64,000 bases of DNA from Parcubacteria group bacterium Licking1014_17 (GTDB lineage Bacteria > Patescibacteriota > Minisyncoccia > 2-02-FULL-40-12 > IGHO2-01-FULL-4-A). The notes beneath the pieces are model-generated. The model saw only the letters and a list, made by a program, of their open reading frames with translations, was not told the origin of the DNA and made no database searches. Position numbers and translations under genes: made by a program. The stretch's first letter is position 1, and the number at the start of each line of letters is the position of its first letter. This document shows, in pieces, positions 3,123-57,675 of this stretch. The stretch is taken from assembly GCA_007376485.1 (NCBI GenBank), contig VMGJ01000003.1:17252-81251 (forward strand), in the 5' to 3' direction.

Positions 3123-3123
3123 T

Positions 3124-40498: not shown

Positions 40499-40502
40499 CC
40501 GA

Positions 40503-41660
40503 TTAATTTAGTATTTTTCTGTAATTATCGGCAATCAAATCCCAGTTATATTTGTTCCGCACTAATTTCTTTGCCCGCGAGGCAAGATTTTGCCTTAGAT
40601 TATCGTCGGCTAAAATCGCGTCTATGGCTAGAGCAATTGATTCCGGATTGTTTGGTTTACAGGCAATTCCGGTTTCGCCGTCCTTAAGAAAATTTGGAAT
40701 GCCGCCGACAAGAGTCCCGACTATAGGCACCTCCATAGCCATTGCCTCCAAAAAAGCCGTCCCGAGGCCTTCCGAAACGGATGGGCGCGCGAATATGTCA
40801 GACATCGCCAGATATTTGGGCAGGTCGTCGTGTTTTACGGAACCCGCGAATATAACTTTATTTTTTAAACCTAAATTGGACGCAAGTTTTTCCGCTACTC
40901 CCCGCAAATGGCCATTGCCGACAAGCAATAATTTCCAGTTTTTTGTTTTCAACAGCGAACAAGCCACGATAAGGTCTAAAACGCCGTTTTTGGGCACCAA
41001 ACGCGACACGCTTATGATTACTTTTTCGTCCTTATTAATTCCCAGCAGGTTTTTCTCCGATTCCGCCTCGCCGGCATATTTTTCTTTACCGAAAAGTTCA
41101 ATATCAACGCCGTTGGGAATGACAAAGATTTTATTTTCGGAAATGCCCTGCTTGGCAATATATGATTTAAGATAATTACTAATAACCACAATTTTGTCCG
41201 CTTTTTTTATGATTAATTTACGGAAAATACTTTTTAATATCCCCTGTTTATCCAGGCTTTCGCCTTCCTGGACATTCAGGACAAACTGTTTCCCGTAGAA
41301 AATTTTATAAAGCCAGGCGGCGCCACCTCCCTGGGACGCCTGGAGCGCAAAAATATAATTATAGGGACCTTTTTTTTGGGTAAGCCGGGCGGATTTTATG
41401 AAAGCCGAGATTGGGAAAAATATTTTAGGCACGAAAAAGTTCGTAAGAGAAAACCTACCGCCGCAGCGAAAAACATCCGTGTTGCCGATGCGCTCTTCGC
41501 TTTTCAAATCCCGGTCATACGATCCTCCCCGCGAATTAAATCTTGAGGTGATAAGGTCAAAATGAAAATCCGGCAATCTGTCGGTAATATTTTTTACCGC
41601 CAGCTCGGCGCCGCCGATAGAAGGAAGATAAGATGTCGTAAAAATTAAAACTTTTTTCAT
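40503..41660 (-). CDS. GT4-family glycosyltransferase
   Basis: SEGLGTAFLEAMAMEVPIVGTLVGGIPNFL motif. Confidence 0.7.
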   Translation of the reverse strand: MKKVLIFTTSYLPSIGGAELAVKNITDRLPDFHFDLITSRFNSRGGSYDRDLKSEERIGNTDVFRCGGRFSLTNFFVPKIFFPISAFIKSARLTQKKGPYNYIFALQASQGGGAAWLYKIFYGKQFVLNVQEGESLDKQGILKSIFRKLIIKKADKIVVISNYLKSYIAKQGISENKIFVIPNGVDIELFGKEKYAGEAESEKNLLGINKDEKVIISVSRLVPKNGVLDLIVACSLLKTKNWKLLLVGNGHLRGVAEKLASNLGLKNKVIFAGSVKHDDLPKYLAMSDIFARPSVSEGLGTAFLEAMAMEVPIVGTLVGGIPNFLKDGETGIACKPNNPESIALAIDAILADDNLRQNLASRAKKLVRNKYNWDLIADNYRKILN

Positions 41661-41662
41661 TG

Positions 41663-43411
41663 TTATTCGGCAAATTCTATACTAATATCTTTCGCGTCGG
41701 TCAGGGAAAAATAATAATTGGCGGTTTTCTTGTCGCCAAGACCCGAGTACGCCTTGCCTAAAATCAGCAAAACATCCCCATCCCTGGATTCTGCCTTAAT
41801 TTCACTGCCAATAAAAGAGATGGCTTCTTTCGGTTTGCCGGAATTAATTAGGCTTAAAGCGTATACTTTTGTCCGGTATAAACTCGGTTCTTTATGATAT
41901 AAATCCCCGAACAATTCCGCCGCTTCGCCGTATTTTTTCTGGAACATCAGGAGGCGGGCAAGATTCCATTCCGCCGTCTGGTATTCGGGATTAATCTCAA
42001 ACGCTTTTTTGTAATAAGATATGGCGTCGCCGATTCTGCCCTCATGGGCGGCTAACGCGCCTACGACGCTCAAAGTCGGCAAATGCTCGGGGTAAATTGA
42101 ATACGCCTGAATGGCTAAAGGATTGGCTTTATCCCACCGGTTGATTTTCATGTATTCCCGGGAAAGAAGCGCCATCGCATGAACGCTATTTGGCGACTGC
42201 GCCACGGCGCTTTCAAATAAGGTCACATTATTTAACCAATCATTATTGCGATTCACAGTAATAATGACATAAATAATACAAATAAGCCCCAAAAAAGGAT
42301 ATGAAAGATATCTGACCCATTTCTTCCGGGTAATATAAACAATGGTGGTGGCGGTTATAACGGCGATGCCTGCCGATGAAGCATAAAACATCCTTTCGGC
42401 CATTATTGTGCCGATAGGCAAAACGAAATTGGAAACTATAAAATAAAAAGCCAATAAAAGCGCCGCCCCCAGGCCCAGGGCGGTTTTTTTCGTCCGGTCC
42501 CCAAAAATCAGCAAAAGTAATCCGGCAAAAATAAGTAGGCCTAATATAACATAGAGATTAAAAAAATTATTAAGAACCGGAATTTGGTTGTAAGAATAAT
42601 CCGACGAGAGGTGGAATGGAATAAATGTTTTATAGATATAAAGAAGCATTATTTTTAAAGCCGTGAACACGCGCGCCGGCAAAGCCAAAGACGCCAGCGG
42701 GTTATAAACAAAAGCAACCTTAACCGAAAAAATATATTCCTTGAGCGCTATGTACCGCAGAATAAAATAAAGCGCTACCGCTCCCCAATACGGCGCTAAT
42801 TTGTAAAAAACTTCTTTTATGTTTTTGCCCTGACGGATCCACAGCCACCAGACGGCCACCGCTATCAGCCCCAGGCCGCTTTCTTTGGAAAGCATTCCCA
42901 ACAGAAAAAATACCGCCCCCGTCCAATATTTTTCTTTATCTAAAAACAACAGGCTTAAAAGCGAGAAAAATAAGATAAGAACATCCGCCCTACCGGAAAT
43001 GTATGTGACCCCCTCGGTATGTATGGGCATGACAGCGAATAAAATAGAAGATAGATAAGCCAGGCGTTCATCTGAAAACAATTTCCGAGCCAGGACGAAA
43101 ATCAAAAAAATATTCAAGCCGTGAATAATTATATTAACTACGTGGAAGCCGGCCGGATTTGAACCAAATAAATAATTAAAAGCGTAGGAGACCAGGGTGA
43201 AGGGCCTGTAAAGACCAGATTCCGGCTGGTTATAAAATGGTTTGAAAATAAGAGTGGGAATTGAACCTAAACTTCTAATATCCTGGTTTTTTTCTATGGA
43301 TGAATAATCATCAAGAACAAAACCGCCCCCTATGCCATTGCCAAATAAAATAAAGGCCAAAACTATGGCTCCCGTGCATATCAGTAATAGTTTTTTTCTG
43401 TCGGATTTCAT
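41663..43411 (-). CDS. PMT/ArnT-like GT-C membrane glycosyltransferase with C-terminal TPR repeats
   Basis: The N-terminal membrane domain carries a DDYSSIEKN...GLYRPFT loop. The C-terminal ~180 aa show TPR-like repeats (AIQAYSIYPEH..., YKKAFEINPEY..., LARLLMFQKKYGEAAELF). Confidence 0.6.
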   Translation of the reverse strand: MKSDRKKLLLICTGAIVLAFILFGNGIGGGFVLDDYSSIEKNQDIRSLGSIPTLIFKPFYNQPESGLYRPFTLVSYAFNYLFGSNPAGFHVVNIIIHGLNIFLIFVLARKLFSDERLAYLSSILFAVMPIHTEGVTYISGRADVLILFFSLLSLLFLDKEKYWTGAVFFLLGMLSKESGLGLIAVAVWWLWIRQGKNIKEVFYKLAPYWGAVALYFILRYIALKEYIFSVKVAFVYNPLASLALPARVFTALKIMLLYIYKTFIPFHLSSDYSYNQIPVLNNFFNLYVILGLLIFAGLLLLIFGDRTKKTALGLGAALLLAFYFIVSNFVLPIGTIMAERMFYASSAGIAVITATTIVYITRKKWVRYLSYPFLGLICIIYVIITVNRNNDWLNNVTLFESAVAQSPNSVHAMALLSREYMKINRWDKANPLAIQAYSIYPEHLPTLSVVGALAAHEGRIGDAISYYKKAFEINPEYQTAEWNLARLLMFQKKYGEAAELFGDLYHKEPSLYRTKVYALSLINSGKPKEAISFIGSEIKAESRDGDVLLILGKAYSGLGDKKTANYYFSLTDAKDISIEFAE

Positions 43412-43461
43412 TTTGGAATTGGCGCTTCCAAACCAAGGAATTATGTGATATTTTACATTAT

Positions 43462-44676
43462 ATGGGCTTAATTAGCAAATTGCCGGAACAAAATGTTGGC
43501 ATGAAAAAAAGGGTGCTTTTTATTGTAACGGTATCCGAGTGGGGCGGTGCCCAACAGTTTTTATTCAAGCTTATTCGGGGTTTATCCGGAAAAAATTTGG
43601 AATTTTTGGTGGCTGTGGGGAACGACGGGGACGGAACTTTTTACAATAAACTTGCCGGCATGATTAATGTCGTGACTTTAAAACAGCTAAAAAGAAATAT
43701 CAGTCCTGTCAGCGACATAAGGGCTCTTTGGGAAATCAAAAATCTGATTGAGCACTGGGAGCCGGACACGGTTTTTCTGAACAGCTCCATAGCGGGCTTC
43801 ATCGGTTCGGCGGCAGTCAGATTTTTGGTAAAGTCCCCCAAGCCCAGAGTTATCTATCGCATCGGCGGATGGGTTTTCAACGACCCCAAGCCAAAATGGG
43901 AACGATGGCTGTATATCTTGCTTGAAAAAATAAGCTCGCGCTGGAAAGACGTAATTGTCGTCAATAATCTGCCTGATTACAGACAAGCCGATAAATACGG
44001 GATTAAACCGCGTGAGAAACTGGAGTTGGTTTATAACGGCATTGATCCCTATACTTTAGACCTTCTCCCAAAAGAAGAAGCCCGTGGATTGATTCTTGAC
44101 CGCATCGCGAAAAAAACGCCCGCGGCTTACAACCCCGCCTATATTGTCGGGACAATAGCCAATTTTTATAAGACCAAGGGTCTTGAATACCTGGTCAGAA
44201 GCGCGAAATTGCTGCTTGATAAAATTAGAGAAAGAGATACCGGACTGAAAATTCTCTATGTAATAATCGGCGACGGCGAAGAGAGGATGAATCTGGAAAA
44301 AACGATAAAGGAGCTGAATCTCAAAGATAATGTCTTTTTATTCGGCAGAGTTGAAAACGCGCACCGTTACCTGCCGGCATTCGATGTTTTTGTTTTGCCG
44401 TCATTAAAAGAGGGTCATCCTTGGGCGCTTATTGAAGCAATGGCGGCGAAAATCCCCGCGGTTGTAACTTCCGTTGGGGCAAATATTGATATTATCGAAA
44501 ACGGGAAAAACGGGCTGTTAGTGCCCCCGGGAAATTCCGAAGCTCTCGCGGAAGCCGTTGAATTAATGCTCTTGAACGAACATTTAAGATTAAAAGTGGC
44601 TATCGGAGCCCATCAGACGATAGTCCTGAATTTCGACCTCAATAAAATGGTCTCAAGAATCGAATCCTTATTGTAG
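43462..44676 (+). CDS. GT4-family glycosyltransferase (probable true start at the MKKRVLFIV methionine, 43501)
   Basis: EGHPWALIEAMAAKIPAVVTSVGANIDIIENGKNGLLVP motif. Only plus-strand gene in this part of the locus; it diverges from the upstream operon. Confidence 0.7.
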   Translation: MGLISKLPEQNVGMKKRVLFIVTVSEWGGAQQFLFKLIRGLSGKNLEFLVAVGNDGDGTFYNKLAGMINVVTLKQLKRNISPVSDIRALWEIKNLIEHWEPDTVFLNSSIAGFIGSAAVRFLVKSPKPRVIYRIGGWVFNDPKPKWERWLYILLEKISSRWKDVIVVNNLPDYRQADKYGIKPREKLELVYNGIDPYTLDLLPKEEARGLILDRIAKKTPAAYNPAYIVGTIANFYKTKGLEYLVRSAKLLLDKIRERDTGLKILYVIIGDGEERMNLEKTIKELNLKDNVFLFGRVENAHRYLPAFDVFVLPSLKEGHPWALIEAMAAKIPAVVTSVGANIDIIENGKNGLLVPPGNSEALAEAVELMLLNEHLRLKVAIGAHQTIVLNFDLNKMVSRIESLL

Positions 44677-45256: not shown

Positions 45257-45305
45257 AGCTTATTTAATACACAAAAAACATCAAAATACAAGCCGCCCCC
45301 CAACC

Positions 45306-45332
45306 AAAAACCGCCTTTCGGCGGTTTTTGGT
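45306..45332. terminator. bidirectional rho-independent terminator (copy 1)
   Basis: Perfect hairpin AAAACCGCC-tttc-GGCGGTTTT flanked by A- and T-tracts, immediately 3' of the 705-aa gene. Confidence 0.7.
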
Positions 45333-45368
45333 TTGCATAACCCCGTGTTGAGGTTATGGCGCCTATGC

Positions 45369-47486
45369 TTACAGCTTCGAGAATGTTGGACCGTTCATCG
45401 GGAGGGTTCTTAATATGCCGGCCGTTGAGCCCGTAGCTTGGTTACCAGACGTCCAATTGATTAAACCATTTTGATTATCTCTCAATGCCAACTGAAAGAA
45501 ATCTCTCCTATGGGGAAACCCCGAAAAATTAATTTCAATCCGATACGTTCTGGAACTTCCGGCGCTGATTTCAATATCGTTGCCCGGCGGCAAAAAATCC
45601 AGGATTAGCGGCGCATAAACATTGGGATTGTCCCCGGCTCCTCTTATCGTATCAACGCTTTTGATAGTGCCGTCACTCGCATCATAGGTGGTAGCGACCA
45701 AATCAGTCGCCGCAGAATCACCGGAAGCCACAGCGTCAAAAACAATCGAGCCCGCCGGCAATGAACTGTTATCAAGCCATAATACCGAGTCTGGCGCGCC
45801 CATTGCCGTTATCGTAAACTTAATAACATCATTGGTGTTAACGGGTTCATAGCCGCTGGTCGGTACCATATGAAATTCCGGATAAACCTGGTAAACATAT
45901 ATGTCATTGCTTTTTACGTCATTTATACCCGGAGAGGCGCCATTAAGAACCTGGCCTGAAATTTCGCCAACCGCCCGAAAACTGTCGGTAGTTGAACCTT
46001 TATAATTATCGGAGAAATCAATGGAAAAAAACTTATTATTGGTCGCACCCTGCGATTTGGTTTTGAGATCGGCTTTAACCAATAATTCAGCGGAGGAGTC
46101 CTTGGGTATGTAAGGTCTTGAGTCGCCGGTAAAGGCAAAAATAGCGACACCGCTCGAGTCCGGCATGGCATTTTGGGTCAACTCCTGGCCACTTTTGTTT
46201 TTATAAACAATAGTCGTGTTCGCTACATTGCCGGCAAAATTGATCTTCTCATTAGCGTCCAGCGGCGTGAGTGTTACGCGCTCGATAAAAAAAGCGTCGT
46301 TGCCGGAGGTCACTCTGAATCTGCTGAATTCCGTACCTGTCTGTCCCCAGAACTTAGCCCCGCGCGTTGGCGTCATGGGTGATTGTGAGATATTAAGGAT
46401 TCCAGAACTACCCACAGTTACAATTATCTTTGGGTTAGTAATCCCATTGGGCGGTGCGTCATATGATGCGTGTACTACTCCCCCGACATCATCCGTACCC
46501 GTAATATCCGTGGTAGATTCGATATCAAAGGATAGTGAATCGCTGGAACCAGAAGTGGCGTTTGATGATATATCCCCTTTTACTAATAACCTTTTCGTCG
46601 TACCAGCAGAGATAGTCCAATTGCACGCGCTAAACTGGATAGTGCTGACTGACAAGCTAAGGTTATTAGCCGTTATTATGCAATCCAAAGGCTTACTGGT
46701 ATCGCCTTCAAAAAGCCGAATGGCTGTTATCCTATCGCCTATTGATAAGCCATCATCATTTTGGGGCAGGCTTAGGGATTTCGCGAAAATCATTCCATCA
46801 TCCGAAATATAGCCGGTAAGTTTTATGTCGGTAACATTTACACTGGTACTATCCACGGCGGTAAAGTTTACGCCAAGCATTTCCACGTTGGTGGCCCCTT
46901 TTGCGTAGATTCCGGACTTGGGGTTATCCGCGGGAGTTAGAATTAGCGGACCGCTTAAAACGGGATTTTTCCTAACGACCTCCACTTTATTTACATAGAG
47001 AATCGGCTGGGAAAGTACCGAAGAGCCGGCCAGCAGGCGTATGGTCATTTTATGCCTGCCATCGGCAAAACTTACGCTCTGGCTGTATTTTTTCCACGTA
47101 GCGTTATTATCCACGGTGAAGGTCCGGTAGTTTCTCCCGTCAACTGACAATGCCATTTTAGGCCATTGCTTCAGGGTAGTCCCGGTAGGCTCACCCTCTG
47201 CATAAATATCAACGCTGTAACTCGCCGTGCTTTCAAAATCAAAAGTTTGGGACATCCAACTACTGCCTTTCATCATCACCGTCCCCGAGGCGGTTGATTG
47301 ACATTTAACATACCCGCTTTTTGATTCAATAAATTTGCAACCGCTGACTATGGTTGATGCGTCTTCGGCTGGTATTTGAATCAGCGCCAATTGTCTGCCG
47401 GGTATGTCGGTAAATCCGATAAACAAAAGAAACGCGGCAATAATAACCGCATAACCCGTAATTATAAGAAAATTTTTCTTAAACAT
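45369..47486 (-). CDS. large secreted/cell-surface protein (paralog of 47664..51317), beta-rich Thr/Ser/Gly/Asn-rich
   Basis: N-terminal signal anchor. Long collinear blocks are shared with the 1217-aa neighbour: AKFWGQTGTEFSRFR, SRPYIPKDSSAELLVKADLKTKS, FTITAMG. Both share the C-terminal motif LPMNGPTFSKL. Confidence 0.6.
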   Translation of the reverse strand: MFKKNFLIITGYAVIIAAFLLFIGFTDIPGRQLALIQIPAEDASTIVSGCKFIESKSGYVKCQSTASGTVMMKGSSWMSQTFDFESTASYSVDIYAEGEPTGTTLKQWPKMALSVDGRNYRTFTVDNNATWKKYSQSVSFADGRHKMTIRLLAGSSVLSQPILYVNKVEVVRKNPVLSGPLILTPADNPKSGIYAKGATNVEMLGVNFTAVDSTSVNVTDIKLTGYISDDGMIFAKSLSLPQNDDGLSIGDRITAIRLFEGDTSKPLDCIITANNLSLSVSTIQFSACNWTISAGTTKRLLVKGDISSNATSGSSDSLSFDIESTTDITGTDDVGGVVHASYDAPPNGITNPKIIVTVGSSGILNISQSPMTPTRGAKFWGQTGTEFSRFRVTSGNDAFFIERVTLTPLDANEKINFAGNVANTTIVYKNKSGQELTQNAMPDSSGVAIFAFTGDSRPYIPKDSSAELLVKADLKTKSQGATNNKFFSIDFSDNYKGSTTDSFRAVGEISGQVLNGASPGINDVKSNDIYVYQVYPEFHMVPTSGYEPVNTNDVIKFTITAMGAPDSVLWLDNSSLPAGSIVFDAVASGDSAATDLVATTYDASDGTIKSVDTIRGAGDNPNVYAPLILDFLPPGNDIEISAGSSRTYRIEINFSGFPHRRDFFQLALRDNQNGLINWTSGNQATGSTAGILRTLPMNGPTFSKL

Positions 47487-47600
47487 AAGTGTAACTTTTG
47501 GCCGGCAAGGCGGTTTTTATGCTACGTATCGCCGGCAAATTAGTTGTATGCCACTAATTATATATTAAAAAATAAAAAACTTATTCACAGATGGCAAACC

Positions 47601-47627
47601 AAAAACCGCCTTTCGGCGGTTTTTGGT
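47601..47627. terminator. bidirectional rho-independent terminator (copy 2)
   Basis: Same hairpin, 3' of the 1217-aa gene. Part of a ~110-bp near-identical duplicated block (45304-45414 / 47599-47699). Confidence 0.7.
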
Positions 47628-47663
47628 TTGCATAACCCCGTGTTGAGGTTATGGCGCCTATGC

Positions 47664-50600
47664 TTATAGCTTCGAGAGCGTTGGTCCGTTCATCGGGAGC
47701 AAGCGCAGCGTGCTGGTCGTTGAAGCAGTGTCGGCATCCGCAAGCGAACCGGCTGAATCAGCAACCCAGTTAATCAAGCCGTTTACGTCATCGCGCAAGA
47801 TCAATTGGAAGTAGTCTGATTTGTCATTGAAGCCGGAGAATCCAACTTCAATGCGGAATGTCTTGGATGTGCCACCCGAGATTTCAACGTCTTTGCCGGG
47901 CGACCCGAAGTCCAAAGTCAGCGACGCATAGTAAGACGGACTGTCGCCAACCGCGGAAATCGTGTCCGAACTGATAACCGAACCGTCGGCCATGTCATAG
48001 GTCGTAGCCGTCAGGTTTGTCGTTGTCGTATCACCCGAAGCGACGGCTTCAAACTTGATTGAGCCGGAACCAGTAGCAAGGTTGTCGAAGTACAGCTTGG
48101 AATCGGAAAGACCCATGGCTGTAATCGTGAACTTCAGCACGTCCTTGGTACCCAAAGGCTCGCCGGCGGAGATAGCCACCTGGTCAAGCTTTGGAAACAC
48201 ACGGTAGACGTACATATTGTTGCCTTGCTTGGCGGCAGCCGCGGCATCAATGATACCGGTTGACGCACCATCAATAACTTGGCTTGAGCCGGCGCCAATC
48301 GCTCTGAAACCGTTGGCGGTTGAACCGTTGTAGGTCTTAGAGAAGTCGATTGAGAAGGCAACGTTGTTGGTCGCGCCTGACGACTTGGTCTTCAGGTCCG
48401 CCTTCACAATAAGGTCGGCGCTCGAGTCCTTAGGAATATAAGGCCTGCTGGTGCCGGCAAACGCGAAGGAGACCGAACCAGCCGAGTTAGGCGAAGCGCT
48501 CTGGGTCAGAAGGTTACCGAGAGCATCGGTGTAAGTCACCGAAATGTTATTCACATTATTAACCTCGTTGGTTGATTCACCCGAAGCGCTGGCAATCAAC
48601 GTGAAGCGTTCAATGTAGAAAGCCTCATTCGTAGAAGTCAGCCTGAATCTGCTGAATTCGGTGCCGGTCTGGCCCCAATACTTAGCTTCTTGAGACGGGG
48701 TGGATGGCGATAGCGAAATCGTCATGGAGCCGGTATTGTTGACCCTTATTTTCACAGTCGGCGATGCGGCGGCGCCGTTCGGAAGAGTCGCGTCCGCGTT
48801 CACCGTCTGGCTGGAATCGTCAAGGGCTGTTATATCGGTCGTAGCGGCGACATTAAACGCTATGCCGTCATACGTACTGGACGGAGTGTTCGTCGAGAGG
48901 TCGCCCTTAACCAAGAGTTTCTTGGTCGCGCCGGCAGGAATAGACCAGTTGCAGTTGTTGAACTGAATGGTGCTTGTTGACGAACTTAGATTGTTTGCAA
49001 CCATGACGCAGGATAACGCTGTCCCTGCATCGCCGTCGTACAGCTTAACTCCCGACACTAGATTGCCGACTGACATTGTGGCATCGGCGTCGGATAGGCC
49101 CAGCGACTTGGCGAAGGTCGAGTTGTCATCCGAAACATAACCGGTAAGAGTTATATCGGTGACTTTCAGACTTGAACCAAGAGCCGCCTTGAAGGTCAAG
49201 CCAAGCAAATCAACATTGGCAGTTCCCTTAACATAGGTCGAGCTCTTTGGGTCGCCGGCAAGACCGAGCGTCAATGACGATGTTGAAACCGTCATAGCAT
49301 TGCCGCTTATATCACCGGACGGACTAAAGTCAGCCAAAACGACGGCAGTGTTGGTGCCGCTGTACTTGGCAACAGTCAAGTCGCCGGATGAAGTAGCAAG
49401 AGTGCCGTAGCCGTAGAGAATCGCTTTGATAATACTGTTGTTGGCTATGGCAAGAGTTCCGCTGTTAGATGTCTTGAGGTCGGCGGTTACCTGAAGGGTC
49501 TTGGTCTCTCCGGTAAGCATTTCCATGGTATCAGTGAAATCCTTATAGAGACCGTTCTTGGAACCCGGGCAGGCCGCTGTTATAGCGATAAAGGCAGAAC
49601 CGTCGGAAGGACCGACAAAAACCGTACCCGTGCTCTTGTCTTTAACCTTGATGTCTTCAAGGTCGGTAACGTTTTGCGCCGCGCTGTAGTCATCATAAGT
49701 GCCATCGCCGTTGATGTCCGTGCAGATAACGATTCTGTGCTTTTTTAGCTCAATGGCCTTAGCGGCATTGATTGTGTATTCTAACAGCACATTATCCTGC
49801 GAATTGTCGGCAATATTGGAAGCCGAAGGACCGGAAAAACTCAAAGTGATTACTCCGCCTTGCAGTGTTATGGCATCAGCATCGGATGCGGTCTCAAGCC
49901 CGTTATTGGCCGAAGATAAAGCCATACCAAAACCATATTGATCGCCAACAACATAAACATCAGAATTCAGCTCAAAGTAGAGCTCAACTGTCTCGGCTTT
50001 CTTGCCGCCCAAGTTTCCGTAAACCTGGAATATTTTGTTGTTGCCTTTCTCAATCTTCACGCCCGAACCGAGGTCAAACACCACATAGCCGTTTGACATA
50101 TAACCATCGGCTACTTTCGAACCGCCGGTTTCAAGCGCTAGGCCGGTGATGTCGGCATCCTTTACGGTGCCGTTGTTAATTAATCTCAATCCCCTTACCC
50201 AGCCGGCTTCCGTGGCAGTCGTAATCTTGAATTCGGAAAGTTTGACATGCTGGGCTCCGACATTCGGATTGGAAAGCGAGCCCGATTTGGCAACAGTAAG
50301 AGTGCCACCGTCGCTTCCCGACATTGTGAAGTTAGCGCCAACAATCGGGAAATATCCGCCAAGCGTGCCCGAGGACAAAATTACGTCACCGGACGAAACA
50401 ATATCGAAGTGATTAACATTTCCCCCGGTCGCACTGAGGTCGGCTTTAACTGTAAGGTCTTTTGTGCCATTAACCGAGATGCCCAAGCTGACAAAAGTAA
50501 CCTTACCTGTTGACGAAGACAAACTTTTACCTGAAGTCAGACGGTTGGAACCATCATAGATGTAAACGTTGTCAATATCATCTACGGAACCAGCACCATT

Positions 50601-51317
50601 GCGAGTGATTGTAATGCTGGAAACAGTGCCGGTACCGGTCAATCTGATCTTGGTAAAAGCGATGCCTTGGGCGTTCTTGGTAACGGTTTGACCAGCCGGA
50701 GTGTCGGGAGATAAAGCAACATTAACATTCCCCGCTACCGGCGGTATTGTTGAACCCGGTGTTCTTGTGTAAACGGGAATCTGCGACAAAGAGGTATAAG
50801 GAGTTGAGCTTTTCGGGTACCAACTTTCCTCCCTTGTATTTATGCAGAATACTTTCTTGAAGAAATCGGGGTCTTGCGCCACCGCGTCGCCGCCAGTCAT
50901 CTGGACGGGGTGAAATACGCCGGTATCTTCGCCGGTTACTTCAACCGCCCAAACTTGCTGGGCATTGGTTTCACAATTTCGATACAACCCAGAGGTCGGG
51001 AAAGCATCTCTGACCGTGGGGGTAACATTCTTAACATTGGCAAAACCGCCCAAGTGGGCGTACATGCCAAATATGGCAGGATTCAAAAACAATCTCTTGA
51101 ATCCCAAGTCGTTGACAATATAGACGTCCGGATCGCTGGAGCCGGCAGCACTGATAGTGTTGCCCTCTGTTAATCCGTAGTCGCTCGGTTTGGCTGCGCC
51201 AGCATTTCTGGCTGTCACAAAGATCAAACCGACGGCGAGCACAACGACAAACGCCGCCGCTATAAACGGTAATGATTTTCTTAAATTACTCATGTGTATT
51301 ATTATTTCCATTCTCAT
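47664..51317 (-). CDS. very large secreted/cell-surface protein (1217 aa; probable true start at the MSNLRKSLPFIAAAFVV methionine, 51293)
   Basis: Signal-peptide-like N-terminus. Repetitive beta-rich T/S/G/N composition. C-terminal third is paralogous to the 705-aa protein and ends LPMNGPTLSKL. Confidence 0.6.
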   Translation of the reverse strand: MRMEIIIHMSNLRKSLPFIAAAFVVVLAVGLIFVTARNAGAAKPSDYGLTEGNTISAAGSSDPDVYIVNDLGFKRLFLNPAIFGMYAHLGGFANVKNVTPTVRDAFPTSGLYRNCETNAQQVWAVEVTGEDTGVFHPVQMTGGDAVAQDPDFFKKVFCINTREESWYPKSSTPYTSLSQIPVYTRTPGSTIPPVAGNVNVALSPDTPAGQTVTKNAQGIAFTKIRLTGTGTVSSITITRNGAGSVDDIDNVYIYDGSNRLTSGKSLSSSTGKVTFVSLGISVNGTKDLTVKADLSATGGNVNHFDIVSSGDVILSSGTLGGYFPIVGANFTMSGSDGGTLTVAKSGSLSNPNVGAQHVKLSEFKITTATEAGWVRGLRLINNGTVKDADITGLALETGGSKVADGYMSNGYVVFDLGSGVKIEKGNNKIFQVYGNLGGKKAETVELYFELNSDVYVVGDQYGFGMALSSANNGLETASDADAITLQGGVITLSFSGPSASNIADNSQDNVLLEYTINAAKAIELKKHRIVICTDINGDGTYDDYSAAQNVTDLEDIKVKDKSTGTVFVGPSDGSAFIAITAACPGSKNGLYKDFTDTMEMLTGETKTLQVTADLKTSNSGTLAIANNSIIKAILYGYGTLATSSGDLTVAKYSGTNTAVVLADFSPSGDISGNAMTVSTSSLTLGLAGDPKSSTYVKGTANVDLLGLTFKAALGSSLKVTDITLTGYVSDDNSTFAKSLGLSDADATMSVGNLVSGVKLYDGDAGTALSCVMVANNLSSSTSTIQFNNCNWSIPAGATKKLLVKGDLSTNTPSSTYDGIAFNVAATTDITALDDSSQTVNADATLPNGAAASPTVKIRVNNTGSMTISLSPSTPSQEAKYWGQTGTEFSRFRLTSTNEAFYIERFTLIASASGESTNEVNNVNNISVTYTDALGNLLTQSASPNSAGSVSFAFAGTSRPYIPKDSSADLIVKADLKTKSSGATNNVAFSIDFSKTYNGSTANGFRAIGAGSSQVIDGASTGIIDAAAAAKQGNNMYVYRVFPKLDQVAISAGEPLGTKDVLKFTITAMGLSDSKLYFDNLATGSGSIKFEAVASGDTTTTNLTATTYDMADGSVISSDTISAVGDSPSYYASLTLDFGSPGKDVEISGGTSKTFRIEVGFSGFNDKSDYFQLILRDDVNGLINWVADSAGSLADADTASTTSTLRLLPMNGPTLSKL

Positions 51318-51959
51318 CGCCAGCAGGATTTATAATCCTGATGCCGACAAGAGATTAATCCCTAACGCCTTTACGGGTTCTCTCTGTTATGTTCAGTTGC
51401 AAACCCGGAGTCTGGCCGCGTTATCGCTGGAAGCTGTTTTAATAGTTTTTATATTGCAGCTGCCAGTCTTGCCCCGACCGCTTAAGACTCTTATTTGGGA
51501 ACCTTATAAATTAACTCCTGGCATTCCAAACAACATTCATCAGATTTTAAGCCATTTTCTAGCCAGCCTCGAATATCGGTTTTTAGCCCATATCCGGGGC
51601 AGACTAGTAAAAAACTCACCTCTTTTAGGCTACTAAAAACAATCCAATAATCGCGTAAATTATAGATTTTTTCATCTTTTTACCCGTTTGCTCTTGCAGA
51701 TAATATCAAAACTCTTCCGCGCAGTCAACCAAAAAGACACGACTGTCCGCGGCTAATATTATCATTTACCTAACTACAAACAGTGACGTGTAAGGGTTTC
51801 AAACCTTACACCACACATACTATATTGGCCCCGAAACTGCTATTTATTATAACAACTAACAAATAGCTTTAAAATACTTTCAAGCCCAAAATTGTGGATA
51901 ATTGCAAATAATCACATAATCGAGGCACTGCTAATGACGTCGGGGTACCCGTAAAGATA

Positions 51960-52096
51960 GCGACATAAATGACAAAATTACTATGTCATAGTGACAAAAA
52001 CATTTATGTCACGATATATGACACAGTGACACAATTAGATTGCGACATAAATGACAAATTGACGTGTCACTATGACATAATTGTCATTTATGTCGC
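51960..52096. promoter_or_regulatory. dense array of TGTCA/GCGACA-type repeats (3 copies of a 16-17-bp unit plus three TGTCA-Nx-TGACA palindromes)
   Basis: GCGACATAAATGACAA at 51960-51975 and 52042-52057, and its reverse complement at 52081-52096. TGTCAtagTGACA at 51985-51997. TGTCAcgatataTGACA at 52006-52022. TGTCActaTGACA at 52065-52077. Confidence 0.55.
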
Positions 52097-52608
52097 TATA
52101 GGTTGTCTATCTTCCATATTTTGTCACCTTTGACAAATATGATATTGACGCTTATATCGGAAGAAACTTTATATATGTAAGTGGCGCTCTTGTCGTCCTC
52201 CTTTTTTAAGAGCCACCCGGCTCTCGCCTTTTCAAATTCTGCTATAAGTTTATCCGTTATCCCCTTGTCTTCGCTGGCTATAAACGTTTTTTCCCAGCTT
52301 TCCTGCTTGGATGTCACAAAATAACGGCTCGCAAGTTTAAAATCCTTGCTCTTCAAAGCATCCATAAATAGGTCATAAGTTTCCTCCGGCGTAGCGCCAC
52401 CGATGATATCACCGCTGGCAATAATCGGTTCAGAACCATTTTCTCCCGCGGTTTTATCGCCCTGTATTTTTTTCAATATTCCGGAGAAGTTCAACATACC
52501 CAAAATTGCCGATAGAGCAACGACTCCAAAAATAATGGTGATTATCCAATTTTTACGGAAAAACCCATTGCTCCTTCTGGAGTCGCCAGATATTGCCGGG
52601 TTGTTCAT
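52096..52608 (-). CDS. small membrane-anchored protein (N-terminal TM + ~130-aa extracytoplasmic domain), unknown function
   Basis: 170-aa ORF. Hydrophobic helix WIITIIFGVVALSAILGML. Shares an operon with the upstream regulator gene. Confidence 0.5.
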   Translation of the reverse strand: MNNPAISGDSRRSNGFFRKNWIITIIFGVVALSAILGMLNFSGILKKIQGDKTAGENGSEPIIASGDIIGGATPEETYDLFMDALKSKDFKLASRYFVTSKQESWEKTFIASEDKGITDKLIAEFEKARAGWLLKKEDDKSATYIYKVSSDISVNIIFVKGDKIWKIDNL

Positions 52609-52632
52609 CGATCTAATTTTAACATTACGGAA

Positions 52633-53265
52633 TTAACTCGGCAATCGCGGGATGAAGTAAAACACGCTTTTACCCTGAACTTCCTTCAAAATCACGTTAT
52701 TTTCCAGTAATTCGGAGATTTTTCTCTGGATTGTTCTCCTGCTTATATTTTTAAATTCGGTGTAAACTTCCGAGTTCTGTACCCTCCCTTTTTTAGAAAT
52801 AAAATCAATTATTTTATCCTGCAAATCGCTGGGGGCCCGCCCTCTTTTTCTATTTGCCATACTTTTTTTTATCGTCTTAACCGGTTTATTTTCAGAGATA
52901 TCTTTTCTGGCATCAATTTTTTTCGCTTTTCTCGGAGTAATATTCTTGGCCGGAGAGGATATTACAAGCTTCAAAAGCAATAAATCTTTTTCAATAATCA
53001 TTGTTTGGGACAGGGTTTCGGAAAATAAATGCCGCATTATATACATAACCGATAGGCAGTGATCTAGATAATAACCGATTGATTTCGAGGAAACTTCGTC
53101 AATTTTACCGTTTTCGGTAACAAAAATTGCCGAAATATCGGCAATTTTTCTGGATTCCGTAAAACAAATTTCGCTAAAAAACTTATCAGGCAAGTTTTTG
53201 GCTAAAGTCTCAAGCTCGACGGCCAGATTAATGACAAGGCGCAAGGATGAGTTGTTATCGCTCAT
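52633..53265 (-). CDS. DNA-binding regulator with C-terminal winged-helix HTH (start uncertain: 53265 ATG or 53319 GTG)
   Basis: C-terminal IIDFISKKGRVQNSEVYTEFKNISRRTIQRKISELLENNVILKEVQGKSVFYFIP is a clear wHTH. It is preceded by a basic linker. The N-terminal ~120 aa are of unknown fold. The gene is flanked on both sides by TGTCGC/TGTCA repeat arrays. Confidence 0.55.
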   Translation of the reverse strand: MSDNNSSLRLVINLAVELETLAKNLPDKFFSEICFTESRKIADISAIFVTENGKIDEVSSKSIGYYLDHCLSVMYIMRHLFSETLSQTMIIEKDLLLLKLVISSPAKNITPRKAKKIDARKDISENKPVKTIKKSMANRKRGRAPSDLQDKIIDFISKKGRVQNSEVYTEFKNISRRTIQRKISELLENNVILKEVQGKSVFYFIPRLPS

Positions 53266-53343
53266 TACATAGACATATAGCACAACGCGACACCGCGTCA
53301 ATGCTTGTCGCAATAACACCCATTGTGTCGCGATGTCATTATT

Positions 53344-53398
53344 TGTCGCTATTATGTCGCGATATTGTCGCTATGTTGTCGCGATTCTGTCACTATCT
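53344..53398. promoter_or_regulatory. five tandem 11-bp direct repeats (iteron-like; consensus TGTCGC(G/T)AT(A/T)n)
   Basis: TGTCGC(or TGTCAC) recurs at 53344, 53355, 53366, 53377 and 53388 with exact 11-bp phasing. Two further copies lie at 53306 and 53326. Located between the htrA stop and the regulator start. Confidence 0.6.
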
Positions 53399-54664
53399 GG
53401 AGCTTAATGTCACAGTGACATTCATTTGGCTACCTTGTCGCAGAACTAATAGTGTCACAGTATCACCGCTGCTGTATTTTTGTATTAAGGCGCTAAGAGG
53501 ATTATCGGCTGTCACCTTCGTGCCATTAACTTCAAGAATTATGTCGTTCTCCTTAATGCCGGCTTTATCCGCCGGAGAACCGGGTGCCACGGCTATTTCA
53601 GTCGCGTTCGGGCCCTTGATGACCAAAGCTCCATAATCCACGGCCAGATTATTGCTGTCTTTGATATCCGGGGTAATCATCACATATCTTACGCCAAGGT
53701 AGGCATAAGTAATTTTGCCGGTTTTTGCCACCTGTTGTATATCTTTTTTGGCAATATTAATGGGTGTCGCAAAGCCGATATTCTGAGCCCCGCTGACAAT
53801 AGCCGTGTTTATCCCCATTACTTCTCCGTTCAAGTTGAGCAGCGGACCGCCGGAATTTCCGGGATTAATAGCGGCATCTGTCTGGATTAGCTGCGACAAG
53901 CTTTCCGAAGAACCGCCGGCGCTATCGGATGCCGTTATGGAACGGGAAAGTCCTGAAACCACGCCCCTGGACACGGTGTTGGAAAATTGCCCCAGCGCGT
54001 TTCCGATAGCTATGGCGGTTTGTCCTATCTGAACCTTGGTTGAATCGGCTAATGGCAGGGCTTTTAAGCCGGATACCGGTATTTTAATCACGGCGACATC
54101 ATTAACGGAATCCATGGCTAAAATTTGGGCGGTAAACTCCCTGCCGTCGCTCAAAATAACCGTGAAAGCGGCGCCGTCGATATTGACAACGTGCCTGTTG
54201 GTTAAAATCATACCGTCGGAACTCACGACAAATCCGGTTCCAGCGGCTACCTGCTGTTTTTGTGTTTGGGGCTGTGTCGGAGTTTGGGGCTGATTTTGGC
54301 ACTGATTGCCGAAAAACTGTCTGAAGAATGGGTCAGAACAAAGGTCTTGGAGTGGATAAGTTCCATTTTGGACTACCTGCAGATCTTTTGTTGCGATTAT
54401 GCTGACAACCGAAGGGCTTGACTGCTTAACAACATTTATAATTTTTGCCTCATCGCTTGTGCCGGGTACATAAGCTGGCGGTTGCTGGGTTGCCAAAGAA
54501 GAAGCCGGACCCGAACTCTGAATGTTGTTAGGAATTGTCATTAGAGCCGCTTCGTATCCGAAAATGGCTCCAAAAATCCCCGATATTATAATGCTGGCCA
54601 CTATTGCGCTTATAACAGTATTTTTTTTAACAAAGTTTGCTATTTTTTCTATTATTTTCTCCAT
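53393..54664 (-). CDS. htrA: HtrA/DegP-family periplasmic serine endoprotease with PDZ domain
   Basis: N-terminal TM anchor. The trypsin fold shows TNRHVV (His), a D, and the GNSGGPLLNLNGEVMGINTAI catalytic Ser motif. C-terminal PDZ-like domain. Confidence 0.85.
   Translation of the reverse strand: MEKIIEKIANFVKKNTVISAIVASIIISGIFGAIFGYEAALMTIPNNIQSSGPASSLATQQPPAYVPGTSDEAKIINVVKQSSPSVVSIIATKDLQVVQNGTYPLQDLCSDPFFRQFFGNQCQNQPQTPTQPQTQKQQVAAGTGFVVSSDGMILTNRHVVNIDGAAFTVILSDGREFTAQILAMDSVNDVAVIKIPVSGLKALPLADSTKVQIGQTAIAIGNALGQFSNTVSRGVVSGLSRSITASDSAGGSSESLSQLIQTDAAINPGNSGGPLLNLNGEVMGINTAIVSGAQNIGFATPINIAKKDIQQVAKTGKITYAYLGVRYVMITPDIKDSNNLAVDYGALVIKGPNATEIAVAPGSPADKAGIKENDIILEVNGTKVTADNPLSALIQKYSSGDTVTLLVLRQGSQMNVTVTLSSR
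53407..53421. promoter_or_regulatory. 15-bp perfect palindrome ATGTCACaGTGACAT (same half-site family), inside the 3' end of htrA
   Basis: Direct reading; the half-site TGTCAC matches the repeat family at 51960-52096. Confidence 0.45.
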
Positions 54665-54809: not shown

Positions 54810-54901
54810 GCAGGATACTTGAATTAGTCCGAACCGCTTTCGCCGCCTGCGGCGGCGAGGAAAACCCCCCGCGAAATTCTGAAAATGCGGCGAAGCCGCG
54901 C
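54810..54901. repeat. inverted repeat R1, ~92 bp, G+C-rich; partner at 55891-55982
   Basis: The reverse complement of 54810-54901 aligns with 55891-55982. The inner ~60 bp are identical and the outer ~30 bp about 85% identical. The flanking 12-bp-stem hairpin at 54783-54811 is not repeated. Confidence 0.8.
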
Positions 54902-54943
54902 CGATGACAATTTCAAGTTTTTCTTTTGGCGGCAAATTCTTTG

Positions 54944-55749: not shown

Positions 55750-57675
55750 TTGAAGTCAATAGTAAACAAAAAATCAGCATCTTTGCTGAAAATTATCTTA
55801 AAAAATCCTTATGAAAATTTTTCTTTTCTGCTTCTACAAAATATGGTTCGAGCCGATGTTTTTAACGGGTTCTTTTGCGGTTTTGATTCGTGCGGCTCCG
55901 CCGCCTTTCCGGATTTTCGCGGGGGGACTTCCTCGCCGCCGCAGGCGGCGAAAGCGGTTCGGACTAATTCAAGTATCCTGCACCACGTTGGAAAAGTCAA
56001 TGCCTCGCCCCGCCTTCGGCGGGTCTCGGCGACCAAATCGTACGGATTTTTCGGGGTAAAAAGAAATTCCCGATTCCGGATTGAAGCTCAACTTGTTGAG
56101 CTCAAAGAATTTGCCGCCAAAGAAAAACTTGAAATTGTCGCTTCCTTTCAGGAAGCCAAAACCGCAAAAGAACCCGGGCGAATTAAATTCGCAGAAATGT
56201 TGTCATTGATTGAGAGAGGGAAAGCAGACGGGATAATTTCATGGCATCCGGATCGTCTCGCAAGAAATTCTGTGGATGGCGGAAAGATTATTCACTTTGT
56301 TGATCGCGGCTTGATTCGTTCCCTCAAATTTCCCTGCTTCTGGTTTGAACCGACACCACAAGGATTATTCATGCTGAACATTGCTTTCGGACAAAGCAAG
56401 TATTTTGTAGACAATTTGCGAGAGAATGTAAAAAGAGGTTTGCGGCAGAAAATCAGAAATGGAGTATGGCCAAGTTGGGCTCCAATTGGCTACACTAACA
56501 ACCCCAAAACGCGCGGTATTGATATTGATAGCGACAAAGCCCCTAAGGTAAAGAAATTGTTTGAAATGTATGCCACCGGAGAATACTCTCTCAACATCCT
56601 CGCAAATTGGTGTGAGAAAAAGAAACTGCTCACTAACGCCGGAAACAAAATATCATTAAGCAATGTTCAGCATATTCTCCAAAACCCTTTCTACATTGGG
56701 TTGATGAGATACAAAGGGGAAATTTTTGAGGGAACACACGAACCGTTAATCTCAAAGAAACTTTTTGATAAATGTCAGGAAGTTATGGTAAAGCGTGGGA
56801 AAGTGAGGCCAGACAGGAAACACTATTTTGCTTTTCTTGGCCTGATGAAATGCGCCTCGTGTGGTTGTTCAATTACGGCTCAATACGCAAAAGGAAATGG
56901 TGGTATTTACACTTACTATCGGTGTACAAAAAAGCGAGGCAAGTGCCAAGAAAAGTATCTTGATGAAAAACAGCTTTTAACACAAATTAAAAACTTCCTG
57001 CAAAAAGTTTCTTTGTCGAGCCAAGACACCGAGAAAGTTTTGGCGGCATTAGGCACAGAAGAAACACAAGCGAAACAACAAGCACAAAGTGAGGCGGTAA
57101 ATCTAAAAGAGCAGTTAGCTCAAATTGAAACAAAGCTCCAGAAATTGCTGGACGTATATCTCGATGATGCACTTACTCAAAAAGAATACGCCACCAAAAA
57201 AGATGTCCTCATTTCCCAAAAGGTCGAGTTAAACGAAAAAATCACCGACTTTGAGCAAAAAGGGGTGTCTTGGCTCGAACCGGCTCGTGAGTTTGTAAAA
57301 TCCTTGAATCAAGCCGCTAATTTACTTGAATCAGAAAATCTTTCCGAAATGACAACATTTCTGAAAAACATCGGCTCGAACCATATTTTACGGAATCGGG
57401 AATTTCTTTTTACCCCGAAAAATCCGTACGATTTGGTCGCCGAGACCCGCCGAAGGCGGGGCGAGGCATTGACTTTTCCAACGTGGTGGTCGTGTTCTGC
57501 CATTGAACCACACCCGCGTTGCCAAGGGGGTTTCGGCGAAACTTCGCCGAAACCCCCTTGGCTGAATTTTTATTTTTTATTTATCCAGTCGGTAACGGAC
57601 TGCCAGAATTTACCCCATGCGTCCGGTTGCCCGGCGCTTTTTTCAATCACGCTCGTTTCTTTATTTTTTGAGTAA
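55750..57675 (+). CDS. large serine recombinase (resolvase/invertase-type catalytic domain + recombinase domain + zinc ribbon + coiled coil). True start and stop are uncertain because the ORF runs through repeats S, R1', R2 and R2'
   Basis: WHPDRLARN (the catalytic DRLxR of serine recombinases), GTHEPLISKKLF, the zinc ribbon CASCGCSITAQY...YYRCTKKRGKC and the coiled-coil C-terminus all match large serine recombinases (A118/Bxb1/TnpX-like). The first in-frame ATG/GTG/TTG before the catalytic region is at 55843 (inside S) or 55750. There is no canonical start just upstream of the putative catalytic Ser (KRNS at aa 104-107 or RVS at aa 91-93). Confidence 0.75.
   Translation: MKSIVNKKSASLLKIILKNPYENFSFLLLQNMVRADVFNGFFCGFDSCGSAAFPDFRGGTSSPPQAAKAVRTNSSILHHVGKVNASPRLRRVSATKSYGFFGVKRNSRFRIEAQLVELKEFAAKEKLEIVASFQEAKTAKEPGRIKFAEMLSLIERGKADGIISWHPDRLARNSVDGGKIIHFVDRGLIRSLKFPCFWFEPTPQGLFMLNIAFGQSKYFVDNLRENVKRGLRQKIRNGVWPSWAPIGYTNNPKTRGIDIDSDKAPKVKKLFEMYATGEYSLNILANWCEKKKLLTNAGNKISLSNVQHILQNPFYIGLMRYKGEIFEGTHEPLISKKLFDKCQEVMVKRGKVRPDRKHYFAFLGLMKCASCGCSITAQYAKGNGGIYTYYRCTKKRGKCQEKYLDEKQLLTQIKNFLQKVSLSSQDTEKVLAALGTEETQAKQQAQSEAVNLKEQLAQIETKLQKLLDVYLDDALTQKEYATKKDVLISQKVELNEKITDFEQKGVSWLEPAREFVKSLNQAANLLESENLSEMTTFLKNIGSNHILRNREFLFTPKNPYDLVAETRRRRGEALTFPTWWSCSAIEPHPRCQGGFGETSPKPPWLNFYFLFIQSVTDCQNLPHASGCPALFSITLVSLFFE
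55838..55863. repeat. 26-bp repeat S (AAAATATGGTTCGAGCCGATGTTTTT); inverted copy at 57364-57389
   Basis: Exact reverse-complement match. The left copy lies 27 bp outside R1'. The right copy abuts R2'. Confidence 0.75.
55891..55982. repeat. inverted repeat R1' (partner of 54810-54901), abutting R2
   Basis: See R1. The R1/R1' pair brackets the nucleotidyltransferase gene. Confidence 0.8.
55982..56079. repeat. inverted repeat R2, 98 bp; perfect inverted partner at 57391-57488
   Basis: The reverse complement of 57391-57488 is identical to 55982-56079 over the full 98 bp. The R2/R2' pair brackets the serine-recombinase core, and both copies lie inside the recombinase reading frame. Confidence 0.85.
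57364..57389. repeat. repeat S' (inverted copy of 55838-55863)
   Basis: Exact match in reverse complement. Confidence 0.75.
57391..57488. repeat. inverted repeat R2' (perfect partner of 55982-56079)
   Basis: See R2. Confidence 0.85.
57521..57583 (+). terminator. strong rho-independent terminator 3' of the recombinase gene
   Basis: 20-bp perfect stem GCCAAGGGGGTTTCGGCGAA-ac-TTCGCCGAAACCCCCTTGGC followed by TGAATTTTTATTTTTTATTT. Confidence 0.8.

Follow-up and report, generated by a model that had tools for sequence, protein, structure and literature searches.

A run of short tandem repeats in front of a gene for a winged-helix protein raises the question of what such an array is for. The repeats lie in a 64,000-nt stretch of the genome of Parcubacteria group bacterium Licking1014_17 (assembly GCA_007376485.1, contig VMGJ01000003.1, positions 17,252 to 81,251 of the forward strand), referred to here as the window and numbered from its first letter. 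An initial annotation took them to be iteron-like, the hallmark of a plasmid or phage origin, a centromere-like partition site or a handcuffing operator. Our analysis indicates that the repeats are most likely part of a multi-site operator, or upstream array, of an uncharacterized chromosomal regulator, and not a plasmid or phage origin; the genes controlled are most likely the regulator's own operon and the gene for a giant surface protein.

The repeat motif is strongly concentrated. TGTCRC occurs 66 times in the window, compared to 30.1 +/- 5.1 times in shuffled sequences, and 22 of the 66 occurrences fall within 51960-53515. For [CT]GACA, a broader form of the core, the background is 0.59 sites per 170 bp, and two clusters hold 14 and 13 (Poisson P ~1e-11 to 1e-12 for the clusters; P(>=12) = 2e-12 across the ~376 windows of this size). 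Nowhere else in the window, or in the 4.4 kb past its right end, do more than five sites fall within 170 bp. A chance origin of the clusters is excluded. Nor is the motif a common genome-wide oligonucleotide, a possibility that the initial annotation had held against itself: in the window scan it is local. In total ~30 GACA sites are split over the two clusters, which contain arrays ~1.3 kb apart and bracket a two-gene cassette encoding the regulator and a membrane protein:

52633..53265, minus strand: regulator gene CEN90_350, 210 amino acids (aa) from the ATG at 53265; in GenBank, 216 aa from a GTG at 53283
52096..52608, minus strand: single-pass membrane protein of 170 aa, with a short cytoplasmic N-terminus, one transmembrane (TM) helix and an external domain
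53342..53396, minus strand: five-unit tandem array of 11-bp units (array 1), reading ATAGTGACAGA / ATCGCGACAAC / ATAGCGACAAT / ATCGCGACATA / ATAGCGACAAA
53306..53339, minus strand: three more sites in the orientation of the tandem run, ATTGCGACAAG (GACA at 53309), ATCGCGACACA (53329) and ATAATGACATC (53337)
53272..53292, plus strand: two GACA sites in the opposite orientation, 53272-53275 and GCGACA at 53287-53292
53407..53458, no strand assigned: palindrome ATGTCACAGTGACAT (53407-53421) plus sites at 53436-53441 and 53453-53458, within the last ~22 codons of htrA
51957..52127, no strand assigned: second array (array 2), 16 GACA sites in both orientations, from the stop codon of the 170-aa gene

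The first cluster (53272-53458) extends from the regulator start codon across the 127 bp between the two genes and reaches into the final ~22 htrA codons. Every repeat that had been listed is present: TGTCGC starts at 53306, 53326, 53344, 53355, 53366 and 53377, and TGTCAC at 53388, the last five copies being exactly 11 bp apart. In Tandem Repeats Finder, 53342-53396 comes out as 5.0 copies of period 11 (75% matches) and 53343-53396 as 2.5 copies of period 22 (84% matches); the 22-bp unit fits better because TGTCGCTAT and TGTCGCGAT units alternate. On the minus (gene-sense) strand the array consists of AT[AC]G[CT]GACA units with alternating ATAG and ATCG flanks. The 15-bp palindrome is perfect and, as described, lies within the htrA 3' end, where the codons it covers specify N-V-T-V-T-L. 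The initial inventory fell short in that the array does not stand alone: sites are also present at 53272, 53289, 53337, 53436 and 53453, and again in 51957-52127. The claim that every copy lies on the same helix face also needs to be narrowed. Strict 11-bp phasing is confined to the five-copy run, whose members drift by ~2 bp because each repeat measures 11 bp and a helical turn 10.5 bp, making "same face" approximate even there; elsewhere the distance between neighbors ranges over 8-28 bp, and both orientations occur. The view that this is a multi-site array, and not a two-half-site operator, is borne out.

Array 2 lies where a recurrence of the motif had been suspected (51955-52100), and shares the GACA core. 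A 19-nt unit, ATAGCGACATAAATGACAA, occurs in it three times (51957-75, 52039-57 and, inverted, 52081-99), one copy being a perfect inverted repeat 105 nt away. There are ATGTCATAGTGACA-type palindromes, and the array has overall dyad symmetry. Two components are common to both clusters: the palindrome type ATGTCAnAGTGACA, which in array 2 is found at 51983, 52018 and, inverted, at 52065, and the AT[AC]GCGACA unit.

The protein encoded between the arrays has the makings of a DNA-binding factor. An AlphaFold2 model based on the family alignment (mean predicted local distance difference test score, pLDDT, 85) has residues 3-103 folded as a four-helix bundle and residues 147-204 as a canonical winged helix (pLDDT 96-98), joined by a basic linker that is disordered (104-146). 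The model agrees, as do matches to helix-turn-helix (HTH) families, with the initial description of a C-terminal winged-helix protein encoded directly behind the array. Pfam and NCBIfam recognize only a weak HTH near the C-terminus (NF008154, E 7e-4, residues 149-198), and PHROGs gives only a weak "transcriptional regulator" match. In a word-indexed homolog search the regulator itself, on a contig of 163 kb, was the sole match, and the same search with the family profile returned three proteins; an exhaustive HMMER search found 90 cluster representatives (E <= 1e-3), mostly of 170-260 aa, many of which align across most of the query (identity <=34% among full-length alignments). Across the family alignment the N-terminal helical domain is conserved, the basic linker varies, and the C-terminus carries the conserved motif I-S-R-R-T-L-K-R-K-L-S-E-L...G-K-K-V-F-Y. 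Among 34 members, ten match HTH_DeoR and six Penicillinase_R (PF03965), with matches to HTH_24 too; for the N-terminal domain the same 34 gave no consistent Pfam match, only single weak matches in individuals. When the model was compared to the Protein Data Bank (PDB) by Foldseek, the winged helix alone was matched, and weakly, by AspA, BlaI/MecI, ArsR, HlyU and HxlR; the top match, AspA (E 0.014), concerns the generic winged helix only and is on a par with BlaI, ArsR and HxlR. A profile search of PDB sequences placed the DNA-binding domain of BlaI first (E 1.9e-4). The closest solved relatives of the winged helix are site-specific DNA binders. We found nothing in the literature on the family, which has been seen so far only in Patescibacteria metagenome-assembled genomes (MAGs) and metagenome contigs.

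The distribution of arrays among relatives of the locus is informative. We examined 25 relative loci: seven GTDB species representatives, 16 metagenome loci and two look-ups of distant members, with one genome scan and one metagenome scan keyed to the pattern RTLKRKLSE. They derive from Patescibacteria MAGs (labeled Yanofskybacteria, Paceibacteria or "Saccharibacteria") or from unlabeled metagenome contigs. The recurring gene order is GH1, EamA-like, GH-like, in some cases HtrA and/or a 250-aa Trypsin_2-like protein, and then the regulator. A homolog of the 170-aa membrane protein, with a conserved juxtamembrane motif of the W-W-R-H-W type, stands directly after the regulator in ten of the 25 loci and past an inserted gene in two more; the next gene in four loci (L002, L003, L006 and L007) is a homolog of the giant secreted protein. 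Directly after the TM-protein gene there is an array in five distinct loci, namely these four and L366 (L371 and L372, taken from another collection, duplicate L002 and L007). In the four, the arrays have a GACA core (ATGATGACA, GGCGACACC), with direct and inverted copies 9-11 bp apart and long dyads, and each is the sole such cluster in its locus (8 sites per 150 bp against a mean of 1.2 in L006; 6 against 0.9 in L007). Because they begin right after the TM-protein stop codon, which is the position of array 2, the second cluster of the window corresponds to a conserved element. L366 has its array at the conserved place (1990-2110) with a different core, TGCCAA, present as direct copies of CGTGCCAA and inverted TTGGCACG; where the recognition helix begins, the regulator of that locus reads IAPRT in place of IS[KR]RT. 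Such joint drift is expected of a factor and its operator.

None of the relatives examined has an array in front of the regulator gene: array 1 has no counterpart there and would be a lineage-specific addition. Its absence from all relatives, its length of only 55 bp and the 75-84% likeness of its units would fit a functionless minisatellite generated by slippage from a single ancestral site. Such a history is quite unlikely, since the part of each unit that does not vary is the GACA core, common to ~25 dispersed non-tandem sites and to the arrays of other genomes, whereas the spacers vary; this is a pattern of selection for a recognition core rather than of neutral slippage.

Several observations pair the arrays with the regulator: enrichment occurs at exactly two places, which bracket the cassette and share composite elements; the encoded protein has a confidently modeled winged helix; the order of regulator, TM protein, array, and promoter with giant protein is conserved, the array being the sole such cluster in its locus; and in L366 array core and recognition helix differ together. 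On this basis it is reasonably probable, judging from sequence, that the GACA arrays are binding platforms of the regulator encoded between them. They could instead be bound by a different, unlinked protein, such as a response regulator of the OmpR/PhoB type. The pho-box consensus of E. coli is CTGTCATA(A/T)A(T/A)CTGTCA(C/T), and the tandem run, in which a TGTC[GA]C[TG]AT block and a variable spacer recur with a period of 11 bp, resembles stacked pho boxes; array 1 has both the 11-bp head-to-tail geometry and a TGTCA/TGTCG core, and the specificity of the adjacent regulator is putative. We consider this alternative unlikely. The arrays co-localize with the regulator gene in several genomes, and the sites of array 2 and of the relatives' arrays, 8-10 bp apart and in both orientations, are a poor fit to obligate head-to-tail tandem dimers. 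Moreover, our Pfam scan, which covered 39 window proteins and left out the open reading frames (ORFs) between ~20.4 and 36.7 kb, contains no Trans_reg_C protein.

If the regulator acts through the arrays, promoters should be sought beside them. Four further features are relevant:

53274..53301, minus strand: putative regulator promoter, with -35 TTGACG (53301-53296), a 16-nt spacer and -10 TATATG (53279-53274)
51846..51901, minus strand: TTATCCACA (51901-51893), a perfect DnaA-box-like sequence, then promoter-like TTTAAA-16-TATAAT with TG (51873-51846)
47664..51317, minus strand: giant secreted protein, a 1217-aa ORF (1192 aa as called) with no Pfam domain
53393..54664, minus strand: HtrA-type serine protease (Trypsin_2 and PDZ), upstream of the regulator and co-directional with it

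The putative regulator promoter was picked by eye and fails the rule of our consensus scan, which demands T at position 6; near the regulator start that scan gives weaker GTGACA-18-N6 matches only. Transcription from it would yield a near-leaderless mRNA. GACA sites would occupy the spacer and the -10 region (those of 53272..53292) and the sequence just upstream of the -35. At the other end of the cassette, the element made up of TTATCCACA and TTTAAA-16-TATAAT lies 55-110 bp downstream of array 2 and ~530 nt before the giant gene. It is probably the promoter region of that gene, and the gene itself is the probable regulatory target. Four relatives (L002, L003, L007 and L366) have a conserved promoter 215-330 bp downstream of the array, consisting of TTATCCACA, then TTGTG-16-TATAAT and often a second TTATCCACA. 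The promoter is succeeded by a leader, ~600 nt long in L002, and, in loci long enough to include it, by the giant gene.

Several observations concern these sequences in their own right. TTATCCACA is found at 51893-51901 (minus strand) in the window, at ~5369 and 5421 in L002, ~4741 in L003, ~5463 and 5536 in L007 and ~2365 and 2430 in L366, often within TTATCCACAGA-N6-8-TTGTG upstream of the giant surface-protein gene. DnaA may serve there as a transcription factor, or the conserved sequence may be the site of another factor. Between the promoter-like site and the start of the giant protein, ~530 nt (51318-51845) are untranslated; the stretch holds a 16-codon mini-ORF, MKKSIIYAIIGLFLVA, and has no Rfam match. 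Conserved spurious ORFs downstream of the relatives' arrays had raised the possibility of rRNA, which we rejected: Rfam found nothing, and the ORFs are alternative frames of the giant-protein homolog.

A mechanism can be proposed from these elements. The four-helix bundle would oligomerize the regulator, and the basic linker of ~40 residues would give the winged helices enough freedom to bind sites of either orientation spaced 8-11 bp apart, so that the protein might coat the arrays cooperatively and gain from many weak sites. Array 2, as the ancestral element upstream of the giant-gene promoter, would set expression of the giant gene. Array 1 spans the putative regulator promoter region, from about -5 to -190, and its occupancy would thereby autorepress the cassette; the two arrays, 1.3 kb apart, may be bridged into a loop. 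The membrane protein and HtrA might, speculatively, supply the input signal. We infer the position of the promoter, oligomerization through the bundle, repression as opposed to activation, and looping.

A number of points weigh against the proposal that the arrays serve the regulator as operators. The link between regulator and arrays is one of position and co-conservation only, and the promoter assigned to the regulator gene is a weak one chosen by eye. Autoregulation is not a family trait, given that the relatives lack an array before the regulator gene. Their arrays lie 215-330 bp upstream of a recognizable -35, which is far for a simple operator. The operator model also leaves unexplained a repeat within a coding region: L368 (3490-3660) and L377 (2520-2690 and 3290-3370) contain GACA repeats with a 9-bp period, CATCATTGCCGACACCATTGACA, nearly identical to the intergenic motif of L002, inside the reading frame of a PLC-like/LTD protein after the cassette, where they encode an S/T/P/L-rich linker. 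Lastly, the dyad-symmetric array 2 and its counterparts, if transcribed, would give the cassette mRNA long hairpins at its 3' end, and an RNA or terminator role has to be allowed for array 2.

Carried to its conclusion, this last point would have array 2, and in part array 1, act as RNA or single strand, a 3'-terminal hairpin that terminates or stabilizes the cassette transcript and insulates it from the strong surface-protein promoter. Transcribed from the minus strand (51940-52110), array 2 is predicted to fold into a near-perfect hairpin of 143 nt (-67.6 kcal/mol, z = -9.4) that starts at the stop codon, and the relatives keep long perfect inverted repeats there despite a different sequence, for example a 22-bp stem in L002; the array 1 region gives z = -3.2. 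Yet no U-tract follows the stems, and each arm of the hairpin is a series of GACA units, a repetition that stem formation does not call for. Array 1 reuses the same core in what are mainly direct repeats, upstream of a start codon, and dyad symmetry is equally required by a dimeric DNA binder. We therefore regard a purely RNA-level explanation as improbable, although a role in RNA may coexist with DNA binding.

What of the replicon that the initial annotation had envisaged? On that reading a replicon derived from a plasmid or phage, whether integrated or ancestral, would have the repeats as its iteron origin or its partition centromere. There are tandem 11/22-bp repeats; arrays lie on both sides of a small operon, and short-repeat arrays that overlap or flank an operon promoter are a partition-type feature; a perfect DnaA box is found 55 bp from array 2 and a serine recombinase 2.3 kb away. 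Of 120 IMG/VR loci, 32 have 11-bp-phased TGTCGC arrays within a phage initiator gene of the DnaD/O-like kind. The protein tells a different story. RepA/RepE/pi, ParB/KorB and TrmB are absent from its Pfam/NCBIfam, Foldseek-PDB and PDB-profile match lists, so that the profile and fold searches show no similarity to Rep, ParB or TrmB; the fold is not Rep-like, having no WH1-WH2 tandem of winged helices, and comparison to the winged helix of the phage initiators gave an hhalign probability of 11.7%. No homolog of the regulator was found by tblastn in 72,556 plasmids or 50,697 phage records, and blastn gave no match in plasmids or phages either. The locus is no more suggestive of a replicon: its chromosomal gene order is kept in relatives without any recombinase, the region has a single DnaA box and no cluster of them, and within the window GC skew shows no turn and gene orientation no switch. 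Neither a ParA, ParM or TubZ partner nor any other NTPase or replication gene is present among the Pfam-scanned neighbors, and we identified no AT-rich unwinding element or replication genes at the locus. The replicon reading is largely refuted and in our view highly improbable. Of the original interpretation, the architecture stands (a cooperative multi-site array for a winged-helix protein), and the replicon or partition context falls away.

The viral arrays themselves need a word of caution. The pattern TGTCGC-N5 x3 matched more than 120 IMG/VR contigs, and two control 6-mers at the same phasing matched 120+ and 115; because the controls match as many, the count is uninformative by itself. 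We accordingly rejected TGTCGC arrays as a special phage signature, the 32 initiator loci also not being homologous to the regulator. In those 32 of 120 loci (among L008-L127; for example L014, L036 and L010) the TGTCGC repeats lie in an initiator gene of ~260 aa, where they encode a linker and adjoin a T-rich repeat block encoding a K/N-rich segment; PHROGs names these genes DnaD-like helicase loader or replication initiation O-like. They look like a family of in-gene phage origins that share a TGTCGC iteron core and differ in their spacers. The lambda O gene has the same layout, with the origin within the initiator gene. The viral loci are a precedent for winged-helix proteins reading 11-bp-phased TGTCGC; they are not evidence on the locus studied here.

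Three further candidates were rejected. A chromosomal oriC is contradicted by one DnaA box without a cluster, a GC skew without a turn and the lack of dnaA and replication genes among the Pfam-scanned proteins. Accessory sites of the serine recombinase were dismissed on the grounds that the relatives have arrays without a recombinase and that the recombinase has inverted repeats of its own. Transposon ends of the Tn7/Mu kind do not accord with the mixed orientations of array 2, and the supposed cargo is a syntenic chromosomal cassette.

The setting of the cassette is that of the cell envelope. All genes around the arrays are on the minus strand. The neighbors of the cassette are HtrA, the TM protein, the giant secreted protein, an ORF of 233 aa with no recognized identity and the serine recombinase, and the locus is flanked by LepA, HtrA and glycan-synthesis genes. 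Twenty-nine scanned proteins, at 622-20429 (20 of them, 0.6-20.4 kb) and 36683-44676, belong largely to glycan or nonulosonic-acid biosynthesis or to glycosylation (Polysacc_synt_2, DegT, CTP_transf_3, Epimerase_2, PMT_2 and several GT2/GT4), and nearly all ORFs of the first 43 kb are co-directional. The glycan genes and the shared direction place the regulator cassette at the head of a large (~50-kb) envelope/glycosylation locus, and suggest that the giant proteins are glycosylated surface-layer components.

Two sets of repeats in this neighborhood lie outside the arrays. A 103-nt direct repeat of 96% identity (47597-47699 and 45302-45404) is found at the ends of the genes for the 1217-aa protein and for a 705-aa secreted protein, where it takes in the final ~12 codons and a further 67 nt on the 3' side; the two genes may have a C-terminal signal and a terminator in common. 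The large serine recombinase (Resolvase, Recombinase and Zn_ribbon_recom; 491 aa as called in another assembly), 2.3 kb away, is flanked by a perfect 98-nt inverted repeat (55981-56078 / 57391-57488; also 54810-54910 / 55881-55981), and a third copy of this repeat, 88% identical, is nearby. In an independent ENA assembly of the same population both contigs stop at the recombinase element, and one of them, L381, matches the window with 100% identity as far as 55849. Either this is a segment that can invert or move, or it is a repeat at which assemblies break.

The conserved proximity of an HtrA-type protease and a single-pass membrane protein, the external domain of a relative of which is weakly DUF4878-like, points, speculatively, to an envelope-derived input of the kind known from DegS-RseA or BlaR1-BlaI. 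A more ambitious proposal, and one that is possible though doubtful, is an envelope-signaling module specific to the Candidate Phyla Radiation (CPR) and assembled from components without kinship to known ones: HtrA and the DUF4878-like membrane protein would control the availability of the bundle/winged-helix factor, which would polymerize on GACA boxes and so serve as an on/off switch for the major, glycosylated surface protein. By analogy, and with the same reserve, the module would correspond in function to DegS-RseA-sigmaE or BlaR1-BlaI, with a filament-forming binder and enhancer-like arrays.

CPR/Patescibacteria have very few recognizable regulators and few cultured representatives, and to our knowledge almost nothing is known of their transcriptional control. 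The present locus pairs a phylogenetically restricted, uncharacterized DNA-binding family with a conserved candidate core, GACA, and names a conserved candidate target, the giant surface protein that heads a ~50-kb glycosylation locus. It also supplies a rule by which Parcubacteria genomes can be searched: regulator gene, TM-protein gene, GACA array. If the array is a mere operator, the addition is a modest one; if it reports envelope sensing for the surface of an episymbiont, it bears on how attachment to the host is managed.

How does the system compare to known ones? Initiators of the Rep_3 (RepA/RepE/pi) and lambda-O/DnaD-like kinds likewise combine a winged-helix protein with tandem direct repeats. 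There is no WH1-WH2 fold here and no homology to Rep_3, and the locus is chromosomal and syntenic; against Rep_3 iterons of 17-22 bp, the 22-bp reading amounts to 2.5 copies, with a single DnaA box and no GC-skew turn. Unlike the in-gene repeats of the lambda-O/DnaD-like initiators, the array is intergenic, outside the gene. Arrays on both sides of a small operon are found in parC1/parC2 of pB171. Array 1, and array 1 only, recalls the pho boxes of OmpR/PhoB in its 11-bp direct-repeat period, its block and spacer and its TGTCA-like core; array 2 and the relatives' arrays depart from them in mixing orientations and spacings, and the regulator has neither an OmpR-type winged helix nor a receiver domain. 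The DeoR family (N-terminal HTH_DeoR and C-terminal DeoRC) is similar in the HTH only, which here is C-terminal and unaccompanied by DeoRC. P2 Cox, 186 Apl and lambda Xis are small winged-helix switches that polymerize on helically phased direct repeats; they are phage directionality or switch factors of ~70-90 aa without an oligomerization bundle, and no integrase-linked role is evident for the regulator.

Two systems come nearer. BlaI/MecI/CopY, which recognize a 4-bp core of TACA/TGTA, give the best profile match to the DNA-binding domain and share a two-domain layout with a separable oligomerization domain; their core is close to GACA/TGTC, and a membrane sensor and a protease are genetically linked to them. 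They differ in the order of domains, with an N-terminal Penicillinase_R and a helical C-terminal dimerization domain, whereas the winged helix here is C-terminal and its partner an unrelated four-helix bundle. They differ also in having one or two palindromes as opposed to ~30 sites, and in that the protease linked to the present regulator is an extracytoplasmic HtrA, not a BlaR1-type sensor-protease. The second system is ParG of plasmid TP228, which binds ~20 ACTC boxes with AT-rich spacers, direct and inverted, in two clusters (OF and parH), one of them overlapping the promoter of the binder's own operon (PMC3130281). ParG coats its site cooperatively, and flexible tails modulate binding (PMC3130281). 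ParG is a plasmid ribbon-helix-helix protein that works with a ParA ATPase, whereas the regulator is a chromosomal four-helix bundle/winged-helix protein for which no ATPase was found and no segregation role is indicated. The arrangement of sites is nonetheless alike: short core boxes, here GACA, with AT-rich spacers, in mixed orientation and in two clusters.

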